From IMG/VR virus record IMGVR_UViG_3300016469_000426, positions 3,785-67,784 of that record: DNA of 64,000 nt. One strand, 5' to 3'. Origin of the DNA: a virus. Each line of letters begins with the position of its first letter. Positions within the stretch are counted from its first letter, which is position 1. Shown here in pieces: positions 2,740-62,280 of this stretch. The translations under genes and the position numbers were made by a program. A model generated the notes under the pieces. It was not told the origin of the DNA and searched no databases. It worked only from the letters and a program-made list of their open reading frames with translations.

Positions 2740-4071
2740 TTAGATAGGAACCACGTTACATGGTGTACAATCGTACACATCCAATGTTACGCAGTTCGCA
2801 CAGTTTTCAAGCCATGTTGTGAGGAACGTCTCAAGAGCAGCATTACGGCCGGTTGAGATAATCTCCAACATGTACTGGTCGTTATCAAACACACCTGTTG
2901 GGTTGTTCAAACGAGGAACATTGTGAAGGATGAAGTAACGAGTGTAAAGCGCATTACGATTTACAGAGTTCAAGATTTGGTCACCCTGAGTGATTTCACG
3001 GATACGAATATCAGTCGCGAAGAAGTTTTGCAGATAAGACTCAGAAAGAATCAAGTCGCGAACAACTTGCTCTCCGAAGCCCATTCCTTGAAGACCGCGA
3101 CACTCTTGGTATACGCAAAGACCTTCGAACACGCAAGGATCTCCGTTGTAATCCACAAGAGATGCGTAGATCAACACTGGCTCTTTTTCGAAGAAGTCAG
3201 TCAGCTGGAAAGAGCAGTTTCCAAACTTTGTTTCTACGTAAGCTCCGAAGAGACGAAGACCAGCACATGCATTTGCAGTGTGTCCAGGAGACACATAAGC
3301 ACTCCACCATTGAGCCGGCGTAATAGCATTACCCTGTGGGTCAACAGTGCTGTTTGGCGGGAACCATGCTGTTCCGGCTTCGTCATAAACAATTGGGAAC
3401 AAGAATGGAGTTAAGTACTGGTTTTCAACGATAGCTTGAGCCCACTGGATCATTACTAAAGTTGAATCAACCGGAGTAGGTGTAGGACCTGTGCAACATC
3501 CGGTGTAGGCCATCACGGTCTGGTAAGCCTGGTGATTCAGGTAACGCAGAGCTGGAGATCCCTTCACATCAATGCGAAGGTAATAGGTCTCATCACAAAG
3601 GAACTTTTTGCAGCAAAGAGGATCCAATGGTGAAAGAGTTTCAGTGTACGGAGTGTTTCCGATAGAAGTCACAGACTGCTGAGGAGCACACTCTTCCACT
3701 ACGTACGCCTTACTGATGTACTTAGGGTTGATAATTTTTGACTTGTTGGACTCTTTATAACCACCATGGAAAGGTCCGATCTTGTCATTTGCTAACAGGG
3801 AACCTGAAGCAAGAACAAGAGGACAACAAGCATTGTTTGACGCAAAGGTCAAATCAACAGACTGATACGTCTTAGGATCAAAGAATCCATAGGATCCTGG
3901 TCCATAGATCGTGTTGGGTGCACCAACAGTATTACCAAGTGCAGAAGATGGAATCCCTGCTACTGTGATAAAACCATTCGTCATGTTGACGTTCGGGTTT
4001 TGACCGGCCCCAGCTCCGGTTACCTGCGTTCCTAAGAAGCGCTTGGTAAAGGCATGATTAAAATACGCCAT
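2740..4071 (-). CDS. hypothetical Cys-rich structural protein
   Basis: 443 aa ORF, many Cys pairs (CC, CxxC), tight spacing. Confidence 0.5.
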   Translation of the reverse strand: MAYFNHAFTKRFLGTQVTGAGAGQNPNVNMTNGFITVAGIPSSALGNTVGAPNTIYGPGSYGFFDPKTYQSVDLTFASNNACCPLVLASGSLLANDKIGPFHGGYKESNKSKIINPKYISKAYVVEECAPQQSVTSIGNTPYTETLSPLDPLCCKKFLCDETYYLRIDVKGSPALRYLNHQAYQTVMAYTGCCTGPTPTPVDSTLVMIQWAQAIVENQYLTPFLFPIVYDEAGTAWFPPNSTVDPQGNAITPAQWWSAYVSPGHTANACAGLRLFGAYVETKFGNCSFQLTDFFEKEPVLIYASLVDYNGDPCVFEGLCVYQECRGLQGMGFGEQVVRDLILSESYLQNFFATDIRIREITQGDQILNSVNRNALYTRYFILHNVPRLNNPTGVFDNDQYMLEIISTGRNAALETFLTTWLENCANCVTLDVYDCTPCNVVPI

Positions 4072-23410: not shown

Positions 23411-25006
23411 TTAAGCTAGTTCTACAGATAGTACTCCAGCATTAGTAAAGATACGATACCTGTTACCATTAGTTCTGTCTAACACAATGAAACCGCGATT
23501 ATTGGTGAGAGTTTCAACATCTCCGTTTACAGTAAGTTTAGATGTGATACCAGCATTAGTACCAATACCTACGTTTCCGGAACCATTCAGGTAAGAATCT
23601 GCTGTTTTAGATAAAGCAAAGCTTGGAGTAGTAGAGAGCCATCCCAAGAATAAAGCATCATCATGAGTACTTTCCATGTATCCGGAAGAGTAATTACCGT
23701 ATCCCATTACAATAGCTCCTCTATGAGAAGCTTTAGTAAAATACCCAACAGCTACACCATTTTGTGCACGAGCTTCAGCAAAAGAACTTAAGCTTAGTGA
23801 ATCTACAGAATTAGCTATGGTAGATACCCCGATGGCAATAGAATTTGCACCTGAAGCGGCAGCTAGATAAGCTATAGCCACCGAAAAGTTTCCAGAAGCA
23901 GTACATTGGGTACCAAGAGCCAGTGCCGCAAAAGCAGAGGCTGTACCAAAAGAACCGATAGCTGCGGCATAATCTGCTGTAGCAACAGATTGTGTACCTA
24001 GAGCTGTAGTTGATGGCCTTGTTCCGGAAGAATAAATCCCCATTACTACCGCGTTTGCACCTGTTGCGCTGGCCTCCTGTCCTATTACGATAGAAGCTCC
24101 GCTACCTAATGTGGTATTAGCATTAATACCCATGATAATACCACCATCATCTCTCAGATATGCAAGAGCTGCATCAGCAAAATTACGAATGTGTAAACTG
24201 TAAGTAGAATTACCAGCTCCAGCTCCTTTAACATTAAAAGTAGCATTACCGGTAATAGCATTCACCATTACTTTGGTATTCTGAATATAAATTTCTGGAA
24301 CTACACTGATTGCAGGAGAAGCCCCATCTACAATAAGAGCAATACTAGATATGTTGCTCTCGTTAGAAATTACAAGATTACCGGTGGTGCTTTTTGAAAG
24401 AACATATGCTCCTTGATACCAAGTCCCGACCTCATCTGTTTTCCCGTGAAGTGTAAGATGTGCAGTATCTGAACCACCAACCATGTATGATAAACGAGCA
24501 TATCTTGTAGGTCCAGTTTCCAACATCGCAGTTACAGGCTGACCTGCTCCGCTTTTATTTACATGTAGTTCATAAAGAGGAAGAATATTGATACCAACTT
24601 TTGCGTCATTGAGTGTTCCAAACTGAAGACTATGCCCACCAAAATTTACTGATCTTGGACCAGTAAATGTTCCATTACTGTTATAGATATTTACACTTAC
24701 CGGTGGAGGTAAAAGATCTATGAAATCTTCAATACTAACTGCAAAATTTTGGTAACTGCTTTGATTTCTGGAATCTTTTACTTTTTTACCAATGACCAAA
24801 AGATCTGCATTTTCTAGTTGCAATTCTGTAATCAAACGGCCGTTAGCTATAATGGCGGGAAAGTTTACAACATCCATGTGATAACTGTATTTACTATAAT
24901 ATACAGAATTATCATCACTTTGCCAAATTTTTTGTTGCCCGGGAACGATTTGAACGTCCGTTCTCTGGTCCAAAACCAGATGTCCTGCCGCTAGACGACC
25001 GGGCAT
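23411..25006 (-). CDS. tail fibre / receptor-binding protein
   Basis: 531 aa, Gly/Ala/Ser/Asn-rich beta repeats (GANSIAIGV, GNVGIGTNAG). Confidence 0.55.
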   Translation of the reverse strand: MPGRLAAGHLVLDQRTDVQIVPGQQKIWQSDDNSVYYSKYSYHMDVVNFPAIIANGRLITELQLENADLLVIGKKVKDSRNQSSYQNFAVSIEDFIDLLPPPVSVNIYNSNGTFTGPRSVNFGGHSLQFGTLNDAKVGINILPLYELHVNKSGAGQPVTAMLETGPTRYARLSYMVGGSDTAHLTLHGKTDEVGTWYQGAYVLSKSTTGNLVISNESNISSIALIVDGASPAISVVPEIYIQNTKVMVNAITGNATFNVKGAGAGNSTYSLHIRNFADAALAYLRDDGGIIMGINANTTLGSGASIVIGQEASATGANAVVMGIYSSGTRPSTTALGTQSVATADYAAAIGSFGTASAFAALALGTQCTASGNFSVAIAYLAAASGANSIAIGVSTIANSVDSLSLSSFAEARAQNGVAVGYFTKASHRGAIVMGYGNYSSGYMESTHDDALFLGWLSTTPSFALSKTADSYLNGSGNVGIGTNAGITSKLTVNGDVETLTNNRGFIVLDRTNGNRYRIFTNAGVLSVELA

Positions 25007-25015
25007 TGTAATCAG

Positions 25016-25087
25016 AGACCCTGGAGAGATTCGAACTCCCGACCATCTGATCCGTATTCAGAAGCGCTTCCGCTGCGCCACAGGGTC
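25016..25087 (-). tRNA. tRNA-Arg (anticodon ACG)
   Basis: Hand-folded: acceptor GACCCTG/CAGGGTC, T-loop TTCGAAT, anticodon loop ATACGGA. Confidence 0.7.
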
Positions 25088-25094
25088 AAATTGG

Positions 25095-25167
25095 GGTGAC
25101 CGGCGAGATTTGAACTCGCAACCTTCTGCGCCACAAGCAGACGTTCCACCGATTGAACTACGGCCAC
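25095..25167 (-). tRNA. tRNA-His (GTG)
   Basis: Acceptor GTGGCCG/CGGTCAC, loop TTGTGGC. Confidence 0.7.
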
Positions 25168-25169
25168 AG

Positions 25170-25243
25170 AGCCCGAGGACGGAATCGAACCGCCGACCCT
25201 CTGTTTACAAAACAGTAGCTCTAACCCGCTGAGCTACTCGGGC
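25170..25243 (-). tRNA. tRNA-Thr (TGT)
   Basis: Acceptor GCCCGAG/CTCGGGC, loop TTTGTAA. Confidence 0.7.
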
Positions 25244-25251
25244 TAATATTG

Positions 25252-25324
25252 TATCCCGGACGGGATTTGAACCCGTGTGACCAGACTGAAAACCTGGGAT
25301 CCTAGACCACTAGATGACCGGGAC
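25252..25324 (-). tRNA. tRNA-Glu (TTC)
   Basis: GTCCCGG acceptor, 3-bp D-stem, loop TTTTCAG. Confidence 0.7.
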
Positions 25325-25389
25325 ATGTGAGTGTTCGGGAGACCTGGTACTATATCTCCTCCTTTATCAGGCGTCATTATCACTCGTTG

Positions 25390-25463
25390 TTGCGGGAATG
25401 GGATTCGAACCCATGTCGTTCGGCTTATGAGACCGAGCTGGAACCGCTCCAGTCCACCCCGCA
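25390..25463 (-). tRNA. tRNA-Met/Ile2-type (CAT), atypical 4-nt acceptor-to-D linker
   Basis: Acceptor TGCGGGG/TCCCGCA, loop CTCATAA, D-stem CTGG/CCAG. Confidence 0.55.
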
Positions 25464-25471
25464 TTATTTTG

Positions 25472-25545
25472 TAGGCCCTACCGGGTTTGAACCGGTGACC
25501 TTTACCTTATAAGAGTACTGCTCTGACCAGCTGAGCTAAGGGCCT
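25472..25545 (-). tRNA. tRNA with anticodon TAT (Ile, AUA-reading)
   Basis: Acceptor AGGCCCT/AGGGCCT, loop CTTATAA, one G-A mismatch at top of anticodon stem. Confidence 0.5.
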
Positions 25546-25554
25546 ATTACTTGG

Positions 25555-25626
25555 AACCCCTGACCAGACTCGAACTGGTAACCTTGAGCTTAGAAGTCTC
25601 TTGCTCTTCCATTGAGCTACAGGGGC
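25555..25626 (-). tRNA. tRNA-Arg (TCT), weak anticodon stem
   Basis: Acceptor GCCCCTG/CAGGGGT, loop CTTCTAA. Confidence 0.5.
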
Positions 25627-25634
25627 AGCTTCAG

Positions 25635-25706
25635 TTCCCCCGCCGGGAGTCGAACCCGGCCCCATAGATTAAAAGTCTATTGCCTACACCAGTTTGCTAC
25701 GAGGGA
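25635..25706 (-). tRNA. tRNA-Lys (TTT), weak D-stem
   Basis: Acceptor TCCCTCG/CGGGGGA, anticodon stem ATAGA/TCTAT, loop CTTTTAA. Confidence 0.55.
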
Positions 25707-25808
25707 ATGTTAAATCATGCTGACTTACGTCTGCACTTTATCTTCTTTCGTATCAAGCTGTTGTATAACATGACTGTTAAATCTTCTTTTTTGCTTTGTT
25801 AATTGTTG

Positions 25809-25886
25809 TAGGAACAGAAGGATTCGAACCTTCGACTGACCCTGCTTGTAAGGCAAGCGCTCTGAACCGGGCTGAGCTATGCTCCT
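25809..25886 (-). tRNA. tRNA-Val (TAC), 7-nt variable loop
   Basis: Acceptor AGGAGCA/TGTTCCT, loop CTTACAA. Confidence 0.6.
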
Positions 25887-25894
25887 ATTTTAGT

Positions 25895-25965
25895 TGACAT
25901 GGCAGGGATTGAACCTACGACCTCCCGCGTATCAGGCGGATGCTCTACCGCTGAGCTACATGTCA
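25895..25965 (-). tRNA. tRNA-Ile (GAT)
   Basis: Acceptor TGACATG/CATGTCA, loop CTGATAC. Confidence 0.7.
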
Positions 25966-25972
25966 ATGTTTG

Positions 25973-26045
25973 CGGACTGTATAGGGTTCGAACCTATGAC
26001 CCTCGCCTTAACAGGGCGCCGCTCAGCCAACCGAGCTCACAGTCC
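25973..26045 (-). tRNA. tRNA-Asn (GTT)
   Basis: Acceptor GGACTGT/ACAGTCC, loop CTGTTAA. Confidence 0.65.
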
Positions 26046-26049
26046 ATTG

Positions 26050-26126
26050 CGGTCTATGTCGGAGTCGAACCGACCTGATGTCCCGCGTGACAGGCGGGTG
26101 TCCACAACCAAGCAGACCCATAGACC
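26050..26126 (-). tRNA. tRNA-Asp (GTC), 7-nt variable loop
   Basis: Acceptor GGTCTAT/ATAGACC, stem CCCGC/GCGGG, loop CTGTCAC. Confidence 0.6.
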
Positions 26127-26131
26127 ATTAG

Positions 26132-26205
26132 AGCGAGTGATGAGGCTCGAACTCACAACACCCTGCTTGGAAGGCAGGTACTCTAGCCAATTGAGCTACA
26201 CTCGC
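26132..26205 (-). tRNA. tRNA-Gly (TCC)
   Basis: Acceptor GCGAGTG/CACTCGC, loop CTTCCAA. Confidence 0.7.
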
Positions 26206-26318
26206 AGTATCAACACTGATGAGGCTTTTTCAGAACTTAAGCTACACCCAGCATAGCATACGGCCTTTAACCGTTCCTCATCCTCCCGCTTCTGGATTAC
26301 AGGAGTTGTTTCAACTTG

Positions 26319-26393
26319 TGGAATGGCTGGGATTTGAACCCAGGACCTTCTGCTTGCAAAGCAGCTGCTCGACCAGACCGAGCTCCGCACCCC
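26319..26393 (-). tRNA. tRNA-Ala (TGC) with G3-U70
   Basis: Acceptor GGGGTGC/CCATTCC (G3.U70, one C-C mismatch), loop TTTGCAA. Confidence 0.55.
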
Positions 26394-26447
26394 TAGTGAC
26401 CCTTTTCTTTAATTTTCAGTTTGTGGCGGCCGATCCATATCTGCTAG

Positions 26448-26520
26448 TCGGAGTTGCTGGACTCGAACCAACGGTCTCCTGGTCCCAAACCAGGCGCGAT
26501 ACCAACTTCGCTAAACCCCG
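26448..26520 (-). tRNA. tRNA-Pro (TGG)
   Basis: Acceptor CGGGGTT/AACTCCG, loop TTTGGGA. Confidence 0.7.
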
Positions 26521-26523
26521 TAA

Positions 26524-26560
26524 ACAAAAAAAGCCCCTGATTTCTCAGAGGCTCTTTCTT
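26524..26560. terminator. hairpin flanked by A7 and T-rich tracts (bidirectional terminator-like) inside tRNA array
   Basis: agcccctga tttc tcagaggct, flanked by aaaaaaa and ctttctt. Confidence 0.4.
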
Positions 26561-26751
26561 ATCAAGTTAATCCAAAATTCTTATTTCATGATGGACACAA
26601 CAAGAGCCTCTACGCAATTCGGTTCGTCACCTTTGCGCACGATATTCATTTGGGCCGTATGTTGTATGTTTCTCATTTGCGTTACAAATATACAAACAAT
26701 TTATACATGTGCAACACAACATGTATATTTTTTTTTGATTTTCTTTATATG

Positions 26752-26825
26752 TACTCCCGACCGGACTCGAACCGGTAGCTTACGGATTTTAAGTCCGCTG
26801 TGTTTACCCATTTCACCACGGAAGT
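26752..26825 (-). tRNA. class-I tRNA with anticodon TAA (Leu codon UUA) but short variable loop and Gln/Glu-type 3-bp D-stem; identity uncertain
   Basis: Acceptor ACTTCCG/CGGGAGT, stem GCGGA/TCCGT, loop CTTAAAA, variable AAGCT. Confidence 0.5.
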
Positions 26826-26829
26826 ATTG

Positions 26830-26907
26830 TACCCTCTGAGAGACTCGAACTCTCACCCGAAGACTAGATCCTAAGTCTAGCGCGTCTACCAATTTCGCCA
26901 AGAGGGC
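26830..26907 (-). tRNA. tRNA-Leu (TAG) with short (9-nt) variable arm
   Basis: Acceptor GCCCTCT/AGAGGGT, stem CTAGA/TCTAG, loop CTTAGGA. Confidence 0.55.
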
Positions 26908-26914
26908 GTATTAG

Positions 26915-27000
26915 CGGAGAACAGTGGCCCTGATCCACAATCGTAATATTACGATCAGACTGCTTAGCAGGCAGCTCCTACCCAGGTAGGTTTATTCTCC
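26915..27000 (-). tRNA. tRNA-Ser (GCT)-like, class II, atypical T-loop
   Basis: Acceptor GGAGAAT/GTTCTCC, loop CTGCTAA (as in E. coli Ser-GCU), long variable hairpin ATCGTAATATTACGAT, T-loop ATCAGGG. Confidence 0.45.
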
Positions 27001-27004
27001 ATTG

Positions 27005-27077
27005 AGGTACCGGCGTGATTCGAACACGCGTACTCGAGTTTTGCAGACTGAGGACTAAACCGCTCATCCACGGTACC
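27005..27077 (-). tRNA. tRNA-Cys (GCA)
   Basis: Acceptor GGTACCG/CGGTACC, loop CTGCAAA. Confidence 0.6.
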
Positions 27078-27083
27078 TTGTTG

Positions 27084-27156
27084 CACATGAGGAAGGGGTC
27101 GAACCTCCGACACCTGGTTTTGGAGACCAGTGCTCTACCATCTGAGCTACTCATGT
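27084..27156 (-). tRNA. tRNA-Trp (CCA)
   Basis: Acceptor ACATGAG/CTCATGT, loop CTCCAAA. Confidence 0.7.
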
Positions 27157-27160
27157 ATAG

Positions 27161-27251
27161 CGGAAAGCGGAGGACCCGACCCCCAGTCCAGTTACCCAGA
27201 CACCCGGTTTTCAAGACCGGTCGCGGCTCCAATGCCACTGCTTCACTTTCC
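27161..27251 (-). tRNA. tRNA-Ser (TGA), class II, atypical T-loop
   Basis: Stem CCGGT/ACCGG, loop CTTGAAA; similar to E. coli Ser-UGA; T-loop TCGGGT. Confidence 0.5.
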
Positions 27252-27256
27252 AATTG

Positions 27257-27340
27257 TGGGACCCGGTGGACTCGAACCACTCCTCCGAAGAGACCGAATT
27301 TACAGTCCGGCTGCCGTATCCAAGACGACTTTCAGTTCCC
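27257..27340 (-). tRNA. tRNA-Tyr (GTA), class II
   Basis: Stem CCGGA/TTCGG, loop CTGTAAA, variable hairpin CTCTTCGGAG. Confidence 0.6.
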
Positions 27341-27348
27341 ATGTTTTG

Positions 27349-27421
27349 TGGAGCCACCTGGTATCGAACCAGGATCTCAGGATTTTCAGTCCCACGCATA
27401 GACCGTCTTTGCTATAGCTCC
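27349..27421 (-). tRNA. tRNA-Phe (GAA)
   Basis: Acceptor GGAGCTA/TGGCTCC, loop CTGAAAA. Confidence 0.7.
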
Positions 27422-27450
27422 AAAAAAAAAGCCCGGATATTACTCCGGGC
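27422..27450 (-). terminator. Rho-independent terminator (minus orientation) upstream of tRNA array
   Basis: gcccgga tattac tccgggc followed on minus strand by T9. Confidence 0.55.
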
Positions 27451-27591
27451 CTTGTTCCATAATGCTTAACCTCAATACGAGACATTACTTCAATAGCTAC
27501 CCGGACCACCCTTAGGCGATAACCAGCAATAACTAAAGAGTAACGATTGTCTCATGGCACAAAGATAAGCATATTTTTCAAACACACAAGA

Positions 27592-38237: not shown

Positions 38238-38837
38238 TTGAAAATTAACAAAAAGGTGTATCTTTGCGGCATGACTTCAGCCGTATACATCATCAGAAAT
38301 ACTGTAAACAGCAAGATTTATGTCGGAAGTTCTCAAGATCTAAAAGGAAGATGGAAAACCCATCTTGATAAACTTCGTATAGGTAGGCATCACAACAAGA
38401 GACTTCAACACCATTACAATAAATACGGAGAACAATCTCTCATCATGGAAATTCTGGAAGAGGTATCGCACAATCTCTTAATACTTAGGGAACAGTACTG
38501 GATGGACAAACTGCAACCTTGGTTTAATCTTTGTCCTATAGCTGGAAGCTCCAAAGGAAGGGTATGTACTCAAGAACATAGAGCAAACTTATCTAAGGCT
38601 CACATTGGCAAAAAACATTCCGTAGAAGCCAGATCAAAAATGTCCGCTTCTCATAAAGGTACCAAGAAACCTTGGGCAAGAGGTAAAGGCAAATTAACTA
38701 TAGGACAGGTGCTGAAAATAAGAGATGAGCTCAGTATCAAATCTTGTGCTCAACTCGCAAAAGAATATGGAGTGAAGAGTTCAGCTATTAGCAAAATCAA
38801 ACAGGGTAGAACCTGGAACACCCTTTCTTTGTCCTGA
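38238..38837 (+). CDS. GIY-YIG homing endonuclease (I-TevI-like, with NUMOD3 repeats and C-terminal HTH)
   Basis: VYIIRNTVNSKIYVGSSQDLKGRWKTH (GIY-x10-YIG...R...H); three KGK/GK...S.E.R.K.S repeats; ...KSCAQLAKEYGVKSSAISKI. Confidence 0.8.
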   Translation: MKINKKVYLCGMTSAVYIIRNTVNSKIYVGSSQDLKGRWKTHLDKLRIGRHHNKRLQHHYNKYGEQSLIMEILEEVSHNLLILREQYWMDKLQPWFNLCPIAGSSKGRVCTQEHRANLSKAHIGKKHSVEARSKMSASHKGTKKPWARGKGKLTIGQVLKIRDELSIKSCAQLAKEYGVKSSAISKIKQGRTWNTLSLS

Positions 38838-39436: not shown

Positions 39437-40546
39437 ATGAGCAGACTTGTTAATGCAGCACGTAGCTATGACGCTACAACAAATAAAGGAGCAGTTACTC
39501 ACTCTACCTCCTTGAACTTCTGTCTCGATATGTTCTTCCTTGCAGGAGCATCTCGCAATATGGACGAGAAGTCTATGATCACCATCTTTGAAAGAGCTTA
39601 TGCTCAAGATCCAAACATTGCGGCCAAGATTTTATTCTGGTCTCGTGATGCTCGTGGTGGTGCAGGTGAGCGCCGATTCTTTCATACAATTATGCGACAT
39701 ATTCTGGATAAATATCCTGAGGTTGCAGACAAACTAATGGTACATGTACCAGAGTTTGGGTATTGGAAGGATGTGTTCGCAATAGAGAAACCGAACGAGA
39801 ACAACCTTAACTGGTTGAAACATTCTCTTGAGGAATCTCCTAATGCGAATCTCTTGGCCAAATGGTTCCCGCGCAAAGGTCCATGGTTTGTAGCCATGCA
39901 TCGTTATCTTGGTATGACGCCTAAAGAATTTCGCAAGAAACTCGTGGCAATGACTAAGGTAGTAGAAACGCAGATGTGTAACCAAGAATGGAAAGGTATC
40001 AAGTACGAAGCAGTACCTTCTATCGCGATGAATAAATACCGCAAGGCATTTTTCAAACACGATGAAGAACGTATGAAAGCATACGTTGAGGCCGTACATT
40101 CAGGTGAAGCTAAGATTAACGCATCAGTACTATTCCCTCATCAATTGTATCAAGCAATTAATAAAGGGGAGAATGAGCGTGCAGTCGAAGCACAGTGGAA
40201 TAACCTACCAGATTATATGGAAGGATCAACAGAACGCATCACTCCGGTGTGTGATGTATCTGGAAGTATGATGGGATTACCTATGGACGTAAGTGTAGCG
40301 CTGGGGATTTATATCTCTGAGCGTAACAAAGGTATCTTCAAAGATGCCTTCTTGACTTTCTCTGAAAGACCTGAGATGCAATACCTGAAAGGGTCACTTG
40401 CTCAAAGAATGCGTCAGCTGAATCAAGCTCCATGGGGTGGTACCACAAATCTGCAGTCGACCTTTGACTTAATCCTCAACAGTGCAATCAGAGAGAAAAT
40501 CTCTGAGGATGAAATGCCAACCAAGATCTTAATCATCTCGGATTAA
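39437..40546 (+). CDS. vWA-domain protein, 5' exon (frame stops at TAA 40544-40546 at intron start)
   Basis: MIDAS motif DVSGSM; ends ...KILIISD; preceded by taaatctaagccgtaATG. Confidence 0.65.
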   Translation: MSRLVNAARSYDATTNKGAVTHSTSLNFCLDMFFLAGASRNMDEKSMITIFERAYAQDPNIAAKILFWSRDARGGAGERRFFHTIMRHILDKYPEVADKLMVHVPEFGYWKDVFAIEKPNENNLNWLKHSLEESPNANLLAKWFPRKGPWFVAMHRYLGMTPKEFRKKLVAMTKVVETQMCNQEWKGIKYEAVPSIAMNKYRKAFFKHDEERMKAYVEAVHSGEAKINASVLFPHQLYQAINKGENERAVEAQWNNLPDYMEGSTERITPVCDVSGSMMGLPMDVSVALGIYISERNKGIFKDAFLTFSERPEMQYLKGSLAQRMRQLNQAPWGGTTNLQSTFDLILNSAIREKISEDEMPTKILIISD

Positions 40547-41504
40547 TCTTAGTCCCTCTCAGTAGAAATACTGATGAGAAAACGCTTTAAATTGCGGGAA
40601 ACTCTTTAGAACTCTAATTACCAACTCATCACAGTAATGTAGATGAGGGTGTTACTAATCATAACAGTATGGTAAAAACATTAGAGATTAGACAATCCGC
40701 AGCCAAACTTGTAAAATTATTTGTGTACGTGGAATTTAAACTGTATATTTGTTGTATGAAAACAAGACAATATACACTAGATGAAGACTTCTTCTCTGTC
40801 ATAGACAGTGAAGAAAAGGCTTATTGGTTAGGCTTTATATTTGCAGATGGTTCAGTAACTGTCCGGAGTGCTGGACAAGCCGTACTGCAAATAAAATGTC
40901 ATATTAAAGACGCAGCTCATCTAAATAAATTCCACAAGGATATTGGTACAAACAAGCCTATTAAATATTATAGTCAGAAAACAGTCTACTCAAATAGTAA
41001 GTATGCTCAATCAGCTTTAATATCTAATACACTTGTACAAGATTTAATCTCAAAAGGATGTGTTCCCAGAAAGAGTTTGATTCTCAAATGGCCTAACAAT
41101 CTTACAGAAGAATTAGCTCCTCATTTTATGAGAGGTTATTTTGACGGAGACGGCTCAATATGTGAAACAACTCAGAAAACCAAGCATGGTATCTGGAAAC
41201 ACCCTGCAATCAGTATTTGCGGAACAAAAGAGTTCCTTACCGAGTTTGCTAAAAGATTGAATATTGAAAAGTGTATCTATCCTGAGTACAGAAAAAAAGA
41301 CAAAAATTGTTGGTCTCTCAAGCTCAGCTCAAAAAAAAGATGTAAATCTTTCTTTGACTTGCTTTATAAAGATCAACATGTATGTCTATCTAGAAAACTT
41401 GAAAAGTTTTTAGAATTACAAGGAGGTTCAACGACTACAATAAGCGCACCTACACAGGTGATGGTATAGTCTGATCTTACATGAGAATGTAAGCTAACAT
41501 AATG
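40544..41504 (+). mobile_element. group-I-like intron interrupting vWA gene, carrying LAGLIDADG endonuclease
   Basis: Exon 1 ends on U (40543), downstream in-frame continuation MEFDSACSY... begins after G 41504; boundaries inferred from protein continuity. Confidence 0.5.
40669..41469 (+). CDS. LAGLIDADG homing endonuclease (double-motif)
   Basis: AYWLGFIFADGSV and MRGYFDGDGSI motifs. Confidence 0.8.
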   Translation: MVKTLEIRQSAAKLVKLFVYVEFKLYICCMKTRQYTLDEDFFSVIDSEEKAYWLGFIFADGSVTVRSAGQAVLQIKCHIKDAAHLNKFHKDIGTNKPIKYYSQKTVYSNSKYAQSALISNTLVQDLISKGCVPRKSLILKWPNNLTEELAPHFMRGYFDGDGSICETTQKTKHGIWKHPAISICGTKEFLTEFAKRLNIEKCIYPEYRKKDKNCWSLKLSSKKRCKSFFDLLYKDQHVCLSRKLEKFLELQGGSTTTISAPTQVMV

Positions 41505-42732: not shown

Positions 42733-43756
42733 AGAATCAGAAATTTTGCGTAACTTTGTCACATGACAAAGTATGAACAAGGTGAAGAGTTATACAGACA
42801 AGGTATGTTCTTAAAAGACATTGCTCTGGAGCTAAAAATATCAGCTCATAGACTATCTGTATATCTCAGGAAAAGAGGTGTTCCGAAGAACCCTCATCAT
42901 TACAAGGCAACTGTAAAGTCTACTCTTAGAACCGACATCTTCAAAGATATCGATACTAAGGAGAAAGCCTATTGGCTCGGTTTTATCTTTGCTGACGGGT
43001 ATGTTTCAGAAAGAAACGTTTTTGAAGTGGCGCTATCCATTAAGGATATCTCTCACTTAGAAAAGCTAAAGCTCTTTCTAGGGATAAGCAATCCTATAAA
43101 GATTACAGACACAAGTTGTAGATTATATGTAACTGACAAGACTTTTGTTGCACACCTTAATAAGCACGGTGTTGTACCAAGGAAATCTCTTATCCTCAAG
43201 TATCCATCAATTGATCGAGCCTTTGACAAAGCTTTCATGATGGGCTATTTTGATGGAGACGGATGTCTTACATATAATCGTGTTAGAAAAAGACTTCAGC
43301 TCAGTCTAATAGGAACACCAGAGTTCCTAGAAGCATATAAGAAGAGACTTTCTACTACAGCAAAGCTGACTCTTTATCAGGATAAAAGACATAAGCCACA
43401 AACAAGATATATCTCCGCAGCTGGAAAACACGCTGTAGAAATCTATCAGCAACTTGTAGATGATTCCCCTATACACCTTGAGAGAAAACGCAAAGTATTC
43501 TCTGCCGCGCTAGGTAGTAATACTTAGTGTTATTAACGGGTAAAAACGGTGAAGGCTGAAATGCTAATACCGTGCTAAGACTTCTGATTACGAAAGGCAG
43601 AAGTACAGTGTAACGCATAGTCGGTGAATAAATATAATCCGACCAAGAGTATCCGTCACCCAAACAGTAAAGCTGTGGGTGAAAATGTATGCTGAGCTCA
43701 CACGAAAGACAAGTGTGAGAATCACAGGATAAAAAGCCTGTGAGATAACAAAACTG
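42733..43756 (+). mobile_element. group-I-like intron in AAA+ ATPase gene, carrying LAGLIDADG endonuclease
   Basis: 5' exon ends on U (ggT|aga), intron ends on G 43756; 244-nt structured tail after HEG ORF; splicing fuses GGYGNG|KT. Confidence 0.65.
42763..43527 (+). CDS. LAGLIDADG homing endonuclease with N-terminal HTH
   Basis: AYWLGFIFADGYV and MMGYFDGDGCL motifs. Confidence 0.8.
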   Translation: MTKYEQGEELYRQGMFLKDIALELKISAHRLSVYLRKRGVPKNPHHYKATVKSTLRTDIFKDIDTKEKAYWLGFIFADGYVSERNVFEVALSIKDISHLEKLKLFLGISNPIKITDTSCRLYVTDKTFVAHLNKHGVVPRKSLILKYPSIDRAFDKAFMMGYFDGDGCLTYNRVRKRLQLSLIGTPEFLEAYKKRLSTTAKLTLYQDKRHKPQTRYISAAGKHAVEIYQQLVDDSPIHLERKRKVFSAALGSNT

Positions 43757-57012: not shown

Positions 57013-57080
57013 GGAGGACGTAGCTCAGTTGGTAGAGCAACGGTTGCCGTGGGTCGTAGGTTCGAGTCCTACCATCCTCC
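57013..57080 (+). pseudogene. tRNA-like sequence with truncated anticodon arm (tRNA pseudogene or tRNA-derived element)
   Basis: GAGGACG TA GCTCAGTTGGTAGAGC (canonical D-arm) then ACGG-TTG-CCGT mini-hairpin, T-arm GTAGG TTCGAGT CCTAC, acceptor CATCCTC; ~68 nt. Confidence 0.4.
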
Positions 57081-57282: not shown

Positions 57283-57743
57283 GCGAAGAAAAACAACCAC
57301 AGGAAGGCCGCCACGTAAACAGACATGCTTGCAGAAGACTGGTGTATCCTAGATTAAAGAAGCAGACCAGACCATCTATTAGAATTGCTCATCAAAGATG
57401 GTTAATGGTGATGAGACCCAAACTTCACGGGGTGAACGCGGAGAACTAAATCTCCAGGAGGAAGTAAAAATATGGGCACATGGCGCGACCGATGTGACAG
57501 CCGAAAAGTTGCAATACTTTTCCCCAGCGTAAGCTCATGGGTTAATGAGTGGCGTCTCTGCAACGGGACAACTAGAGAGGGAAACTAAGTCTAAACTGCG
57601 GTGAGGTACAACTCATCTAGGCTCGTATCCTAGTGCCCGGACTGAATCTCGAGGGCCAACCAGGGCGCATAAGCGGCGGGGGCTAACCCGAGGGGGCTGA
57701 TTAGGGTTCGATTCCCTTTGTGTCCACTAAAAATCTAAGCAAC
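57283..57743 (+). ncRNA. 460-nt ORF-free structured region containing a T-arm-like AGGG-TTCGATT-CCCT
   Basis: G-rich hairpins ggcgggggctaacccgaggggg; T-arm-like motif at 57695-57712. Confidence 0.2.
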
Positions 57744-61427: not shown

Positions 61428-62280
61428 TTGCACAGATCAACAAAAAGCTATACCTTCGTCAACAAAACTGTTGTGTATGGTATATGAGAGAATAGCTCCA
61501 ATGAGAAACTATGACAAGACAACTGATACGCGTAAGTGTAAGAAGTGTAATGAGTGGAAACCTCTATCAGAGTTTAGTAGTAGAGTAAGGATCGCAAGCC
61601 CTACTACCAAAGACCTTGTTAAGAAGGTACCTACATTATACTATAGAAGTGAGTGTAAAAGTTGTTCACTTCTATCAATACGTAAACCTGAATACTGTGG
61701 ACCTGATGCTCGTAGGAAACAACATGCATTAGATCCTCGTAAAGTGATGCTTGTTCATGCTCGAATCAGAGCTAAGAAGAAGGGTCTAGTATTTGGTATT
61801 ACTTACGATGATATCATAGTTCCTAAAGTCTGTCCATTACTTCAGATACCTATCCAAGTATCTAAGGGAAAAATAGGACCTGGTAGTCCTAGTATAGATC
61901 GCTTAGACCCTACAAAAGGTTATGTGAAGGGAAATGTCATGGTTATCTCTCATAAAGCAAATACTGCAAAGAATACACTAACTCTTGCAGAGCTTGAATT
62001 GTTGGTCCGTAACTTAAAACGGGTCCTGAATAAAGAGGAAGAATTGCTGGAAAGCTAATGAAATATGGGGCTCGGCATGGTAACCAGTCCATAGTCTAAG
62101 GAGGGAAGTACTCCTGTGGGCTCCACCATATTTTTATGCCAATCAGCAGCCGAGCCCAAGGGGAGACTTGGGAAGGTTCAGAGACTAGGGACACTACGGT
62201 GAGCCCAGAGCATCCTCCACTCAATAGAGTGATGATATAGTCCGATCCTCGTGGAAACATGAGACAAATGGATATAGCCG
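61425..62280 (+). mobile_element. group-I-like intron in ung carrying HNH endonuclease
   Basis: 5' exon ends on U 61424, intron ends on G 62280; 222-nt structured tail after HEG. Confidence 0.6.
61471..62058 (+). CDS. HNH homing endonuclease
   Basis: SIDRLDPTKGYVKGNVMVISHKANTAKN HNH core; N-terminal CKKC...C zinc motif. Confidence 0.7.
   Translation: MCMVYERIAPMRNYDKTTDTRKCKKCNEWKPLSEFSSRVRIASPTTKDLVKKVPTLYYRSECKSCSLLSIRKPEYCGPDARRKQHALDPRKVMLVHARIRAKKKGLVFGITYDDIIVPKVCPLLQIPIQVSKGKIGPGSPSIDRLDPTKGYVKGNVMVISHKANTAKNTLTLAELELLVRNLKRVLNKEEELLES

Follow-up and report, generated by a model that had tools for sequence, protein, structure and literature searches.

A phage genome that carries a long run of transfer RNA (tRNA) genes raises the question of whether the run amounts to a complete decoding set, and whether its unusual members point to an unusual use of the genetic code. 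The question arises for a tRNA array in IMG/VR virus record IMGVR_UViG_3300016469_000426, of which positions 3,785 to 67,784 were analysed as one stretch of 64,000 nucleotides (nt), hereafter the window; coordinates are positions in this window, and array members are read on its minus strand. The window is phage DNA, with genes for the large terminase subunit, the portal and the major head protein. The array shares the minus strand with the head and packaging genes and stands at the upstream end of the gene block that contains them. Being made of tandem same-strand tRNA genes in a phage genome, the feature is a phage tRNA gene cluster. Our comparisons indicate that it is probably a complete, non-redundant phage-encoded set of 24 working tRNA genes on one strand. 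Its odd members are orthodox in meaning and belong to classes already found in databases or the literature.

ARAGORN called 23 tRNAs in 24934-27421, all on the minus strand, and none elsewhere in the window of 64 kilobases (kb); the gathering score of the Rfam tRNA model was passed by 20 array members. Together with one comparative call, Ser(GCU), the ARAGORN calls give 24 genes in 2.5 kb. An earlier note, made by folding the letters by hand, had placed 23 tRNAs from position 25016 onwards and had reported every amino acid except glutamine. All 23 were present with the anticodons it gave, 21 of them called identically by ARAGORN, and its hand-folded Ala(TGC) and Ser(GCT) were upheld by the Rfam alignment for Ala and by nine diverged homologues for Ser. 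The absence of a Gln tRNA was an error, as were the heading built on it and the boundary at 25016: tRNA-Gln(TTG) lies at 24934-25005, 9 nt past the note's start coordinate (ARAGORN; Rfam 57.4 bits), and the array is one tRNA longer than noted. With Gln(TTG) present just past that boundary, the array therefore has 24 members, which represent all 20 amino acids, glutamine included. Gln(TTG) also holds the terminal position in the arrays of the relatives L001/L002 and L011 (L-numbers denote retrieved contigs or loci used as relatives or as a comparison set). From the first gene to the last, the array consists of the following elements, in which 8/4 and 7/5 give the base pairs (bp) of the acceptor and T stems and ORF stands for open reading frame.

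27348-27421 (-): tRNA-Phe(GAA), first gene of the array; ARAGORN, Rfam 59.4 bits
27256-27340 (-): tRNA-Tyr(GTA) with long variable arm; ARAGORN, with 8 acceptor pairs and a 4-bp T stem
27160-27251 (-): tRNA-Ser(TGA), 8/4 type; ARAGORN, and RNAalifold on 6 homologues
27083-27156 (-): tRNA-Trp(CCA), canonical; ARAGORN, Rfam 64.6 bits
27004-27077 (-): tRNA-Cys(GCA); ARAGORN, Rfam 46.6 bits
26915-27000 (-): tRNA-Ser(GCT), 8/4, allo-tRNA-like; read by hand, nine homologues
26829-26907 (-): tRNA-Leu(TAG); ARAGORN, Rfam 57.6 bits
26751-26825 (-): tRNA-Leu(TAA); ARAGORN, Rfam 68.6 bits
26581-26676 (-): 31-codon ORF (MRNIQHTAQMNIVRKGDEPNCVEALVVSIMK) inside the array, between Leu(UAA) and Pro
26447-26520 (-): tRNA-Pro(TGG); ARAGORN, Rfam 65.8 bits
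26319-26393 (-): tRNA-Ala(TGC), anticodon loop UUUGCAA; Rfam tRNA model, 40.7 bits
26206-26318 (-): 112-nt spacer between Ala and Gly
26131-26205 (-): tRNA-Gly(TCC); ARAGORN, Rfam 64.6 bits
26049-26126 (-): tRNA-Asp(GTC), 7/5, with 10-nt D loop and 7-nt variable loop; ARAGORN, below the Rfam tRNA threshold
25972-26045 (-): tRNA-Asn(GTT); ARAGORN, Rfam 52.1 bits
25893-25965 (-): tRNA-Ile(GAT); ARAGORN, Rfam 68.9 bits
25808-25886 (-): tRNA-Val(TAC) with 11-nt D loop and 7-nt variable loop; ARAGORN, Rfam 59.4 bits
25634-25706 (-): tRNA-Lys(TTT); ARAGORN, Rfam 50.8 bits
25552-25626 (-): tRNA-Arg(TCT) with encoded CCA; ARAGORN, Rfam 60.5 bits
25471-25545 (-): tRNA-Ile(TAT); ARAGORN, Rfam 65.4 bits
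25389-25463 (-): tRNA-Met, the sole CAT tRNA; ARAGORN, Rfam 33.6 bits
25251-25324 (-): tRNA-Glu(TTC); ARAGORN, Rfam 51.6 bits
25169-25243 (-): tRNA-Thr(TGT); ARAGORN, Rfam 63.8 bits
25092-25167 (-): tRNA-His(GTG) with encoded G-1 and CCA; ARAGORN, Rfam 65.9 bits
25015-25087 (-): tRNA-Arg(ACG); ARAGORN, Rfam 58.4 bits
24934-25005 (-): tRNA-Gln(TTG) with U1-A72, last gene of the array; ARAGORN, Rfam 57.4 bits

Codon coverage was worked out by standard wobble rules, with G34 taken to pair with C and U, U34 with A and G in a split box and with any third letter in a family box, and A34, as inosine, with U, C and A. Results showed that the 24 anticodons reach 60 of the 61 sense codons and that no codon is read twice, with exactly one tRNA per codon box. 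U34 tRNAs serve seven of the eight family boxes, and the remaining one falls to Arg(ACG), whose A34 is presumably deaminated to inosine. Two-codon sets are served by G34 or U34 tRNAs, and the single-codon readers are Ile(UAU) for AUA, one Met(CAU) for AUG and Trp(CCA) for UGG.

Relatives were fetched from IMG/VR by one protein adjoining the array and by two DNA patterns. Syntenic arrays were found in related contigs of 122-129 kb; the closest relatives, L001 and L002, share the gene order, and the arrays of more distant contigs are partly rearranged. Identity of the array to that of L001 is 80% (2330/2901 alignment columns), and the stem differences are largely compensatory. The anticodon stem of Asp(GTC) carries compensatory changes and that of Glu(TTC) is replaced entirely, likewise in a compensatory manner. 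These changes, and the covariation in the Leu and both Ser tRNAs described below, indicate selection on the cloverleaves. A comparison with 50,697 deposited phage records brought up no close relative of the phage, and the identity of its large terminase subunit to those of crAss-like, Flavobacterium and Cellulophaga phages is only about 24%. CCA is encoded only in His and Arg(TCT), and because the other 22 of the 24 genes lack it, CCA addition by the host would be expected.

Several array members are truly non-canonical, as had been noted, and the reported 7-nt variable loops were seen in Asp and Val. The tRNA with anticodon TAA had been singled out by the earlier note for a D stem of Gln/Glu type and a short variable loop, and had been judged unlike any Leu tRNA. 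The ARAGORN structure bore out the description: the tRNA is 74 nt long with a 3-bp D stem and a short variable loop, which measures 5 nt. The judgement did not survive comparison, since annotated phage tRNA-Leu(UAA) genes have almost the same D- and T-arms. In bacterial Leu tRNAs it is normal to find a D stem of 3 bp and a loop of the form A14-A15...G18-G19...A, and so the Gln/Glu-like argument fails. Leu(TAA) has A1-U72, A73, A14, A15, G18G19 and U48, with anticodon loop CUUAAAA, and its closest matches among deposited phages are all annotated as tRNA-Leu. Its D-arm, GTG-AAATGGGTAAA-CAC, is almost identical to that of the 82-nt tRNA-Leu(UAA) of Pseudomonas phage PA5oct, GTG-AAATTGGTAGA-CAC, and the T-arms of the two are identical. 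Alignment with the PA5oct gene and the 85-nt gene of Pelagibacter phage Mosig showed nearly identical D-arms and anticodon arms, and the sole real difference was the absence of the variable-arm hairpin in the window copy. A Gln/Glu-derived origin of the UAA tRNA was considered and rejected on these D- and T-arm matches and on positions 35, 36 and the discriminator, which are unsuited to GlnRS.

The second leucine tRNA, Leu(TAG), has a Leu-type D-arm (GCG-AAATTGGTAGA-CGC), A73 and a variable region reduced to a 9-nt stub (TCTTCGGGT); its homologues in relatives are 74-76 nt long and have no arm at all. The stub kept in this tRNA suggests a separate or ongoing loss of the arm. Thus the long variable arm that is a hallmark of bacterial tRNA-Leu is missing from both, with 5 nt in the UAA and 9 nt in the UAG tRNA. 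We assembled a covariation set of 11 short Leu tRNAs (seven UAA, four UAG) from related contigs, in which 98.2% of the cells of the cloverleaf were paired and double-sided changes occurred in 17 of 20 pairs. None of 500 shuffles scored as high as this alignment, and slid registers collapsed. U8, A14, A15, G19, A21, U48 and A73 were invariant in the 11 sequences, and G18 was at least 90% conserved. In E. coli, leucine identity rests on these positions, of which A73, A15-U48 and G18G19 are the key elements, and leucylation needs neither the anticodon nor the long variable arm, armless variants staying active (PMC9976931). Judged by sequence, the UAA and UAG tRNAs are leucine tRNAs from which the long variable arm has disappeared.

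How common such tRNAs are was assessed by scanning for UAA anticodon arms that have a T arm behind them at the distance set by a short variable loop. The pattern occurred in at least 120 IMG/VR contigs and in at least 120 GTDB species genomes (bacterial and archaeal contigs, one genome per species). The IMG/VR matches listed include 121 tRNA(taa) by ARAGORN, 118 of them of 73-79 nt. Among the GTDB matches listed (L145-L264), 116 are tRNA(taa) of 74-79 nt; 69 are the lone tRNA in a locus of up to 8 kb, mostly from Actinomycetota and including the genera Arthrobacter, Nocardia, Mycolicibacterium and Rothia (e.g. L148, L155, L164), and 39 stand in arrays of at least 10 tRNAs, such as the 20-30-gene arrays of Nostoc. 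Annotated tRNA-Leu genes of 74-77 nt are also present in cultured phages, namely Pseudomonas phage ZC03, cyanophage P-RSM6 and Streptomyces phage Moab. These share with the window copy a Leu anticodon, a short variable loop, a 3-bp D stem, the A14-A15...GG...A loop and A73; unlike them, the window copy falls in a sub-lineage with D- and T-arms nearest to those of the arm-bearing tRNA-Leu(UAA) of PA5oct and Mosig. A literature search for armless Leu tRNAs in phages or bacteria returned nothing specific, so the claim that they are widespread rests on database scans. On this footing, the UAA tRNA is an ordinary member of a widespread, little-discussed class.

The T loops of both Ser tRNAs had been called aberrant, and they do depart from the TTCRANN consensus, reading GTCGGGT in Ser(TGA) and ATCAGGG in Ser(GCT). 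Ser(UGA) has an 8-bp acceptor stem, a predicted 4-bp T stem (GGGG/CCTC), a 5-bp D stem whose loop is 6 nt long, a 5-nt connector, a 5-bp anticodon stem, a long variable arm and G73. Its additional pair 8:65 is GC in three, UA in two and AU in one of the 6 homologues aligned with RNAalifold, and in Rfam it matches only the tRNA-Sec model, at 30 bits. Both ARAGORN and Rfam overlooked Ser(GCT) at 26915-27000, also when E-values as high as 10 were admitted; ARAGORN did call its L013 homologue tRNA-Ser(gct). RNAalifold on the nine diverged homologues gave 29 predicted pairs, 15 of them with compensatory changes. The predicted structure has an 8-bp acceptor stem with A8-U paired in 9/9 sequences and never varying, a 5-bp D stem whose loop is 4 nt in the window (4-5 nt among homologues), an anticodon stem lengthened to 6 bp with one bulge, in which both extra pairs covary, a 4-bp T stem (GTGG/CCAC) and G73. 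In both Ser tRNAs the lengths fit the 8/4 shape without a leftover nucleotide, and a covarying variable-arm helix and G73, which are determinants for SerRS, are present. T arms were invariant in the homologue sets collected, in the case of Ser(GCU) because its homologues had been fetched with the T-arm 18-mer itself. The aberrant T loops are attributable to the 8/4 architecture and not to degeneration.

The Tyr tRNA probably uses the same arrangement. Eight acceptor pairs, G8-C65 among them, and four T-stem pairs can be drawn for it, and the 7/5 register leaves an A49-C65 mismatch; it falls below the Rfam tRNA threshold and matches tRNA-Sec weakly (23.6 bits), and pair 8:65 shows no variation among relatives. 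The part of Mukai et al. 2017 (PMC5389517) drawn on here reports 8/4 tRNA-Ser in bacteriophage tRNA clusters and translational activity of 8/4 tRNAs in E. coli. Shared with the 8/4 tRNA-Ser/allo-tRNA group of that text are the predicted 12-bp branch (8+4), a long variable arm, G73 and, for Ser(GCU) only, a long D stem capped by a tetraloop and a lengthened anticodon stem. The window tRNAs differ from the group as described there in that their anticodons are cognate for Ser (UGA, GCU), not missense or nonsense, and in that Ser(UGA), in place of a tRNA-Sec-like D arm, shows a D loop of ordinary size with a 5-nt connector. The same portion of PMC5389517 describes the 8/4 shape for Ser, His, Cys and Sec; in the window it seemingly extends to Tyr.

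The TAT anticodon reported for a second Ile tRNA is real by ARAGORN, and Ile(UAU) is predicted to read AUA without lysidine, as had been proposed. The tRNA has the anticodon loop CTTATAA and a body of the tRNA-Ile2 type (lysidine, CAU) with T at position 34. A homologous CAT tRNA is present in the relatives L011, L009 and L005, in L011 at the corresponding place in the array. Among deposited phages, Ile(TAT) is matched best, at 81% identity, by a 'tRNA-Met' (CAT) of crAss-like phage cr108_1, and matches to phage tRNAs of the T4 Ile(CAT) kind were also obtained. Because the relatives carry a homologous CAT tRNA, the simplest history would start with a lysidine-type Ile(CAU) whose C34 became T in the sub-lineage of the window and L001, giving Ile(UAU), and such a change would remove dependence on host TilS. 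Decoding of AUA by tRNA-Ile(UAU) has bacterial precedent, since Mycoplasma mobile and suppressors of a tilS deletion in Bacillus subtilis likewise use a U34 tRNA-Ile for AUA (PMC3575796, PMC3919564); unlike these, the window tRNA is phage-encoded and has a clear tRNA-Ile2(CAU) body, and its close relatives still carry CAT. TAT-anticodon tRNAs are frequent among viral contigs, at 34 of 953 tRNAs in a biased sample. As a separate observation, UAU tRNAs of about 90 nt with a long variable arm occur in other viral loci (L073, L084, L108, L122, L127 and others). They resemble the Ser-accepting allo-tRNAs with non-Ser anticodons in the part of Mukai et al. (PMC5389517) consulted, and would misread AUA if charged with Ser.

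The Met tRNA combines initiator-like and other features. Its acceptor stem, TGCGGGG/TCCCGCA, is initiator-like (U1-A72, G2-C71, C3-G70, A73) and holds the formylase determinants G2-C71, C3-G70 and A73. In place of the 1:72 mismatch of initiators (C1 x A72) there is a U1-A72 pair; the formylase tolerates a weak 1:72 pair. The anticodon stem, TCGGT/GCCGA, has G29-C41, G30-C40 and U31-G39 and so does not contain the three G:C pairs of initiators, and a GGG/CCC anticodon stem is found in the CAT tRNA of relatives L011 and L007. The D stem (CTGG/CCAG) is shifted 2 nt towards the 3' side behind a 4-nt connector, an architecture that is also found in L001, L006 and L009. Matches of Met(CAT) in known phages are annotated as tRNA-Met.

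For Ala, ARAGORN offered a 'tRNA-Gln(ctg)' at 26318-26406, which was rejected: its body of 89 nt contains two A-C mismatches, and Rfam gives a UGC tRNA of normal length (alignment at 26319-26391, 40.7 bits). The locus in L001 was called Arg(ccg) by ARAGORN. The acceptor stem pairs if C26387 is bulged, a C7-C66 mismatch resulting otherwise, and G3-U70 is then present; G3-U70 is the alanine identity pair. The T stem reads CTGGG/CCCAG in the window vs GTGGG/CCCAC in L001, a compensatory difference.

Whether the odd tRNAs reflect decoding oddities, as the earlier note had suggested, was checked against 87 ORFs of the window with 15,787 codons. All 61 sense codons and the three stop codons are used normally; the ORFs are long and intact under genetic code table 11 and end in TAA (52), TAG (13) and TGA (22). 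CAA and CAG, for which a check for depletion had been suggested, stand at 24.3 and 18.2 per 1000 codons and are not depleted. AUA, UUA and AGA occur at 14.6, 13.7 and 15.8 per 1000, with 17.5, 14.7 and 20.0 in plus-strand vs 11.0, 12.6 and 10.4 in minus-strand genes. A second check used one protein of the DUF2828 family, its homologues of about 70% identity or more, and the positions with at least 80% agreement among 115 of them. TTA/TTG/CTN codons fell at conserved Leu positions in 22/22 cases and CAA/CAG codons at conserved Gln positions in 6/6, and the lone ATA codon fell at a conserved Ile. The genetic code is standard, and codon reassignment was rejected as an account of the odd tRNAs on codon usage together with this conserved-protein test.

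The evidence above bears on several other explanations of the array. One holds that it serves codon-usage compensation only, the tRNAs boosting codons that the phage uses more than its host, with completeness incidental. Compensation is the most widely accepted account of phage tRNAs according to the portion of PMC10264068 drawn on, and AUA, UUA and AGA are fairly frequent here and all higher in plus-strand genes. Yet every box has its tRNA, even boxes abundant in any organism (GAA, AAA, GCN, GGN), the set is exactly non-redundant, and relatives keep the same full complement, so that we regard compensation as the whole story as rather unlikely. A deviant code, in which the short UAA and UAG tRNAs carry an amino acid other than Leu or Gln decoding is altered, has in its favour that a Leu anticodon with a short variable loop looks non-bacterial at first sight and that some crAss-like phages, to which this one is distantly related, reassign stop codons. 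Against it stand the presence of the Gln tRNA, the invariance of the LeuRS determinants (A73, A14, A15-U48, G18G19), the annotated tRNA-Leu genes that are the nearest sequence relatives, the 22/22 Leu and 6/6 Gln codons at conserved positions (a small sample from one protein), and the intact ORFs under table 11 with all three stop codons in use. Recoding is accordingly extremely improbable.

A further explanation takes Ser-GCU, Ser-UGA, Tyr, Ala, Met and Leu-UAA as decaying pseudogenes or tRNA-like decoys. Ser-GCU indeed has no match to the Rfam tRNA model, Asp, Ser-UGA and Tyr are below threshold, and Met and Ala score only 33.6 and 40.7 bits; moreover, T54 and A58 are replaced in the T loops of both Ser tRNAs, and the acceptor stem of Ala is imperfect. 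Ala and Met, which show no informative variation, may be decoys. Leu and both Ser tRNAs, on the other hand, show strong compensatory evolution and strict anticodon conservation in diverged relatives, and 8/4 tRNAs are translationally active in E. coli, as stated in the part of PMC5389517 cited above. Without the non-canonical members there would be no decoding of Ser, Tyr, Ala, Met or UUR, yet the other boxes each hold one tRNA. We consider decay of these members quite improbable.

Several points weigh against the reading of the array as a complete set of working genes. The single CAT tRNA implies that either initiator or elongator Met would come from the host, unless it has a dual role; if host Met is still needed, the set is not strictly self-sufficient. 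For Ala, with its imperfect acceptor stem, and Met, with its displaced D stem, a working role is less certain than for the Leu and Ser tRNAs, because the few close relatives give no informative variation there. CGG is uncovered, although it is also the rarest codon (31/15,787), and reading of four codons by U34 in family boxes depends on modification state. We found no CCA-adding enzyme and no tRNA repair, processing or modification enzymes in the window. A strong terminator-like hairpin of 10 pairs with a T-run (27428-27453, minus strand) ends 6 nt before Phe, the first tRNA, and no promoter was identified. A similar hairpin with a T-run lies at about 26525-26560, after the 31-codon ORF and before Pro. 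These hairpins either mark sites of processing or attenuation or are read through when the tRNA blocks are transcribed. A Bacteroidota-type promoter motif, TTTG-N17-21-TANNTTTG, occurs at 7 sites in the window vs 1.5 expected, not clearly intergenic; the excess is only a weak hint about the host.

Known systems resemble the array in part. With the 8-tRNA cluster of phage T4, which contains rnaC, rnaD and segB, and with the larger arrays of jumbo and uncultured phages, it shares tandem same-strand genes, gaps of a few nucleotides and embedded small RNAs or ORFs. T4 is also similar in its U34-rich anticodons and in having Leu(UAA), Ser(UGA), Arg(UCU), Gln(UUG) and an AUA-reading Ile. Unlike T4, the window holds a full one-per-box set of 24 genes and not a subset; moreover, the T4 Ile tRNA has CAT and its Leu tRNA is 87 nt long with a long variable arm, both unlike their counterparts here. 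Minimal tRNA sets of organelles and Mollicutes have one tRNA per box, U34 'superwobble' and a single or near-single Met. The array resembles them in these three respects, and animal mitochondria also have Leu tRNAs without the long variable arm (PMC9976931). It differs from them in that the host cell has its own full tRNA set, that the code is standard, and that Tyr and Ser keep long variable arms.

This likeness leads to a bolder reading, namely that the array is an organelle-style, self-sufficient decoding kit with one tRNA per box, a dual-role Met and members rebuilt on non-standard scaffolds. The single initiator-like Met would then both initiate and elongate, as in animal mitochondria, and the scaffolds would be the armless Leu, the 8/4 Ser and Tyr, the displaced-D-stem Met and the TilS-independent Ile(UAU). 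If true, the phage would escape host tRNA nucleases and modification dependencies, with host synthetases still charging its tRNAs, and could translate after complete loss of the host tRNA pool. We think this bolder reading unlikely.

Two elements of the array are not tRNAs. The 31-codon ORF at 26581-26676 differs from L001 by five changes, and their being synonymous throughout points to a real small protein. The 112-nt spacer that separates Ala from Gly has about 95% identity to L001 and is at least as conserved as most of the tRNAs; in the array of L011 the spacer at the corresponding place is 41 nt. Its predicted fold is multibranched and closed by GATGAGG/CCTCATC, with a z-score of only -1.96. 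A hidden tRNA was rejected for this spacer on that z-score and on the lack of a match to the tRNA model; it may represent one more small stable RNA, comparable to T4 rnaC and rnaD.

Other tRNA-like or mobile elements were found elsewhere in the window. An element at 57014-57080 (plus strand), which ARAGORN did not call, has perfect acceptor, D and T arms (Rfam tRNA 54.1 bits) and no anticodon loop, the arm reading ACGG-TTG-CCGT. The close relatives L141 and L143 have a 52-nt insert exactly at the site of this anticodon arm. The element may signal processing, act as a decoy or represent a tRNA that has been disrupted; an 8/4 reading was discarded, as the ordinary 7/5 register fits and is perfect in L143. 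At 57474-57726 (plus strand), a 5' GGGCACA can pair with TGTGTCC plus A about 245 nt downstream in an acceptor stem with G3-U70; the 3' strand directly follows a T-arm (GGGTTCGATTCCC), and the interior is GC-rich and conserved, an arrangement reminiscent of a transfer-messenger RNA (tmRNA). A tmRNA was rejected here, there being no ARAGORN or Rfam support for a tmRNA or tRNA, and the first pair being broken to A-C in close relatives. Four viral contigs conserve the 3' T-arm/acceptor motif, which could be a copy of a host tRNA 3' end. The window also contains a group I intron at 61973-62264 (plus strand, Rfam 73.9 bits) and three homing-endonuclease ORFs, one GIY-YIG and two LAGLIDADG, at 38238-38837, 40669-41469 and 42763-43527 (plus strand). 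The DUF2828 gene at 39437-40546 codes for 369 amino acids vs about 461 in homologues, and a LAGLIDADG ORF follows it; from the shortfall and the following ORF, the gene appears to be split by an intron or intein.

Returning to the array as a complete set of working tRNAs, we propose that host enzymes would process the transcript, add CCA and charge the products. Bacterial LeuRS, which does not need the long arm, would charge the UAA and UAG tRNAs, SerRS would accept the 8/4 Ser tRNAs, and Ala would be recognised as such by the G3-U70 it has kept. The purpose would most likely be to keep phage translation going despite loss of host tRNAs, whether through tRNA-cleaving defences or through phage-induced shut-off, and topping up of rare codons is less likely: a full one-per-box set exceeds rare-codon needs and therefore fits independence from the host tRNA pool better. 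Yang and colleagues reportedly proposed in 2021 that phage tRNAs replace a host pool depleted by host shut-off. Phage tRNAs have also been proposed or shown to counter anticodon nucleases and tRNA-depleting defences (PMC11555353, PMC11464382, and the portion of PMC10264068 drawn on above).

The locus also shows where tRNA finders err. ARAGORN reported a false second Gln and no Ala, and both ARAGORN and Rfam missed Ser(GCU), so that automated tallies of amino-acid coverage can err in both directions. By the textbook rule, Leu tRNAs of bacterial type always have a long variable arm; short-loop versions proved common, both in viral contigs and cultured phages and in the genomes of some bacteria, which is at odds with that rule and makes it a poor flag for oddities. 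Known mechanisms suffice to account for the array, and no new decoding mechanism is needed. With 24 anticodons for 60 of 61 codons, it would represent a clean case of an exactly minimal tRNA set in an uncultured phage lineage of about 125 kb.

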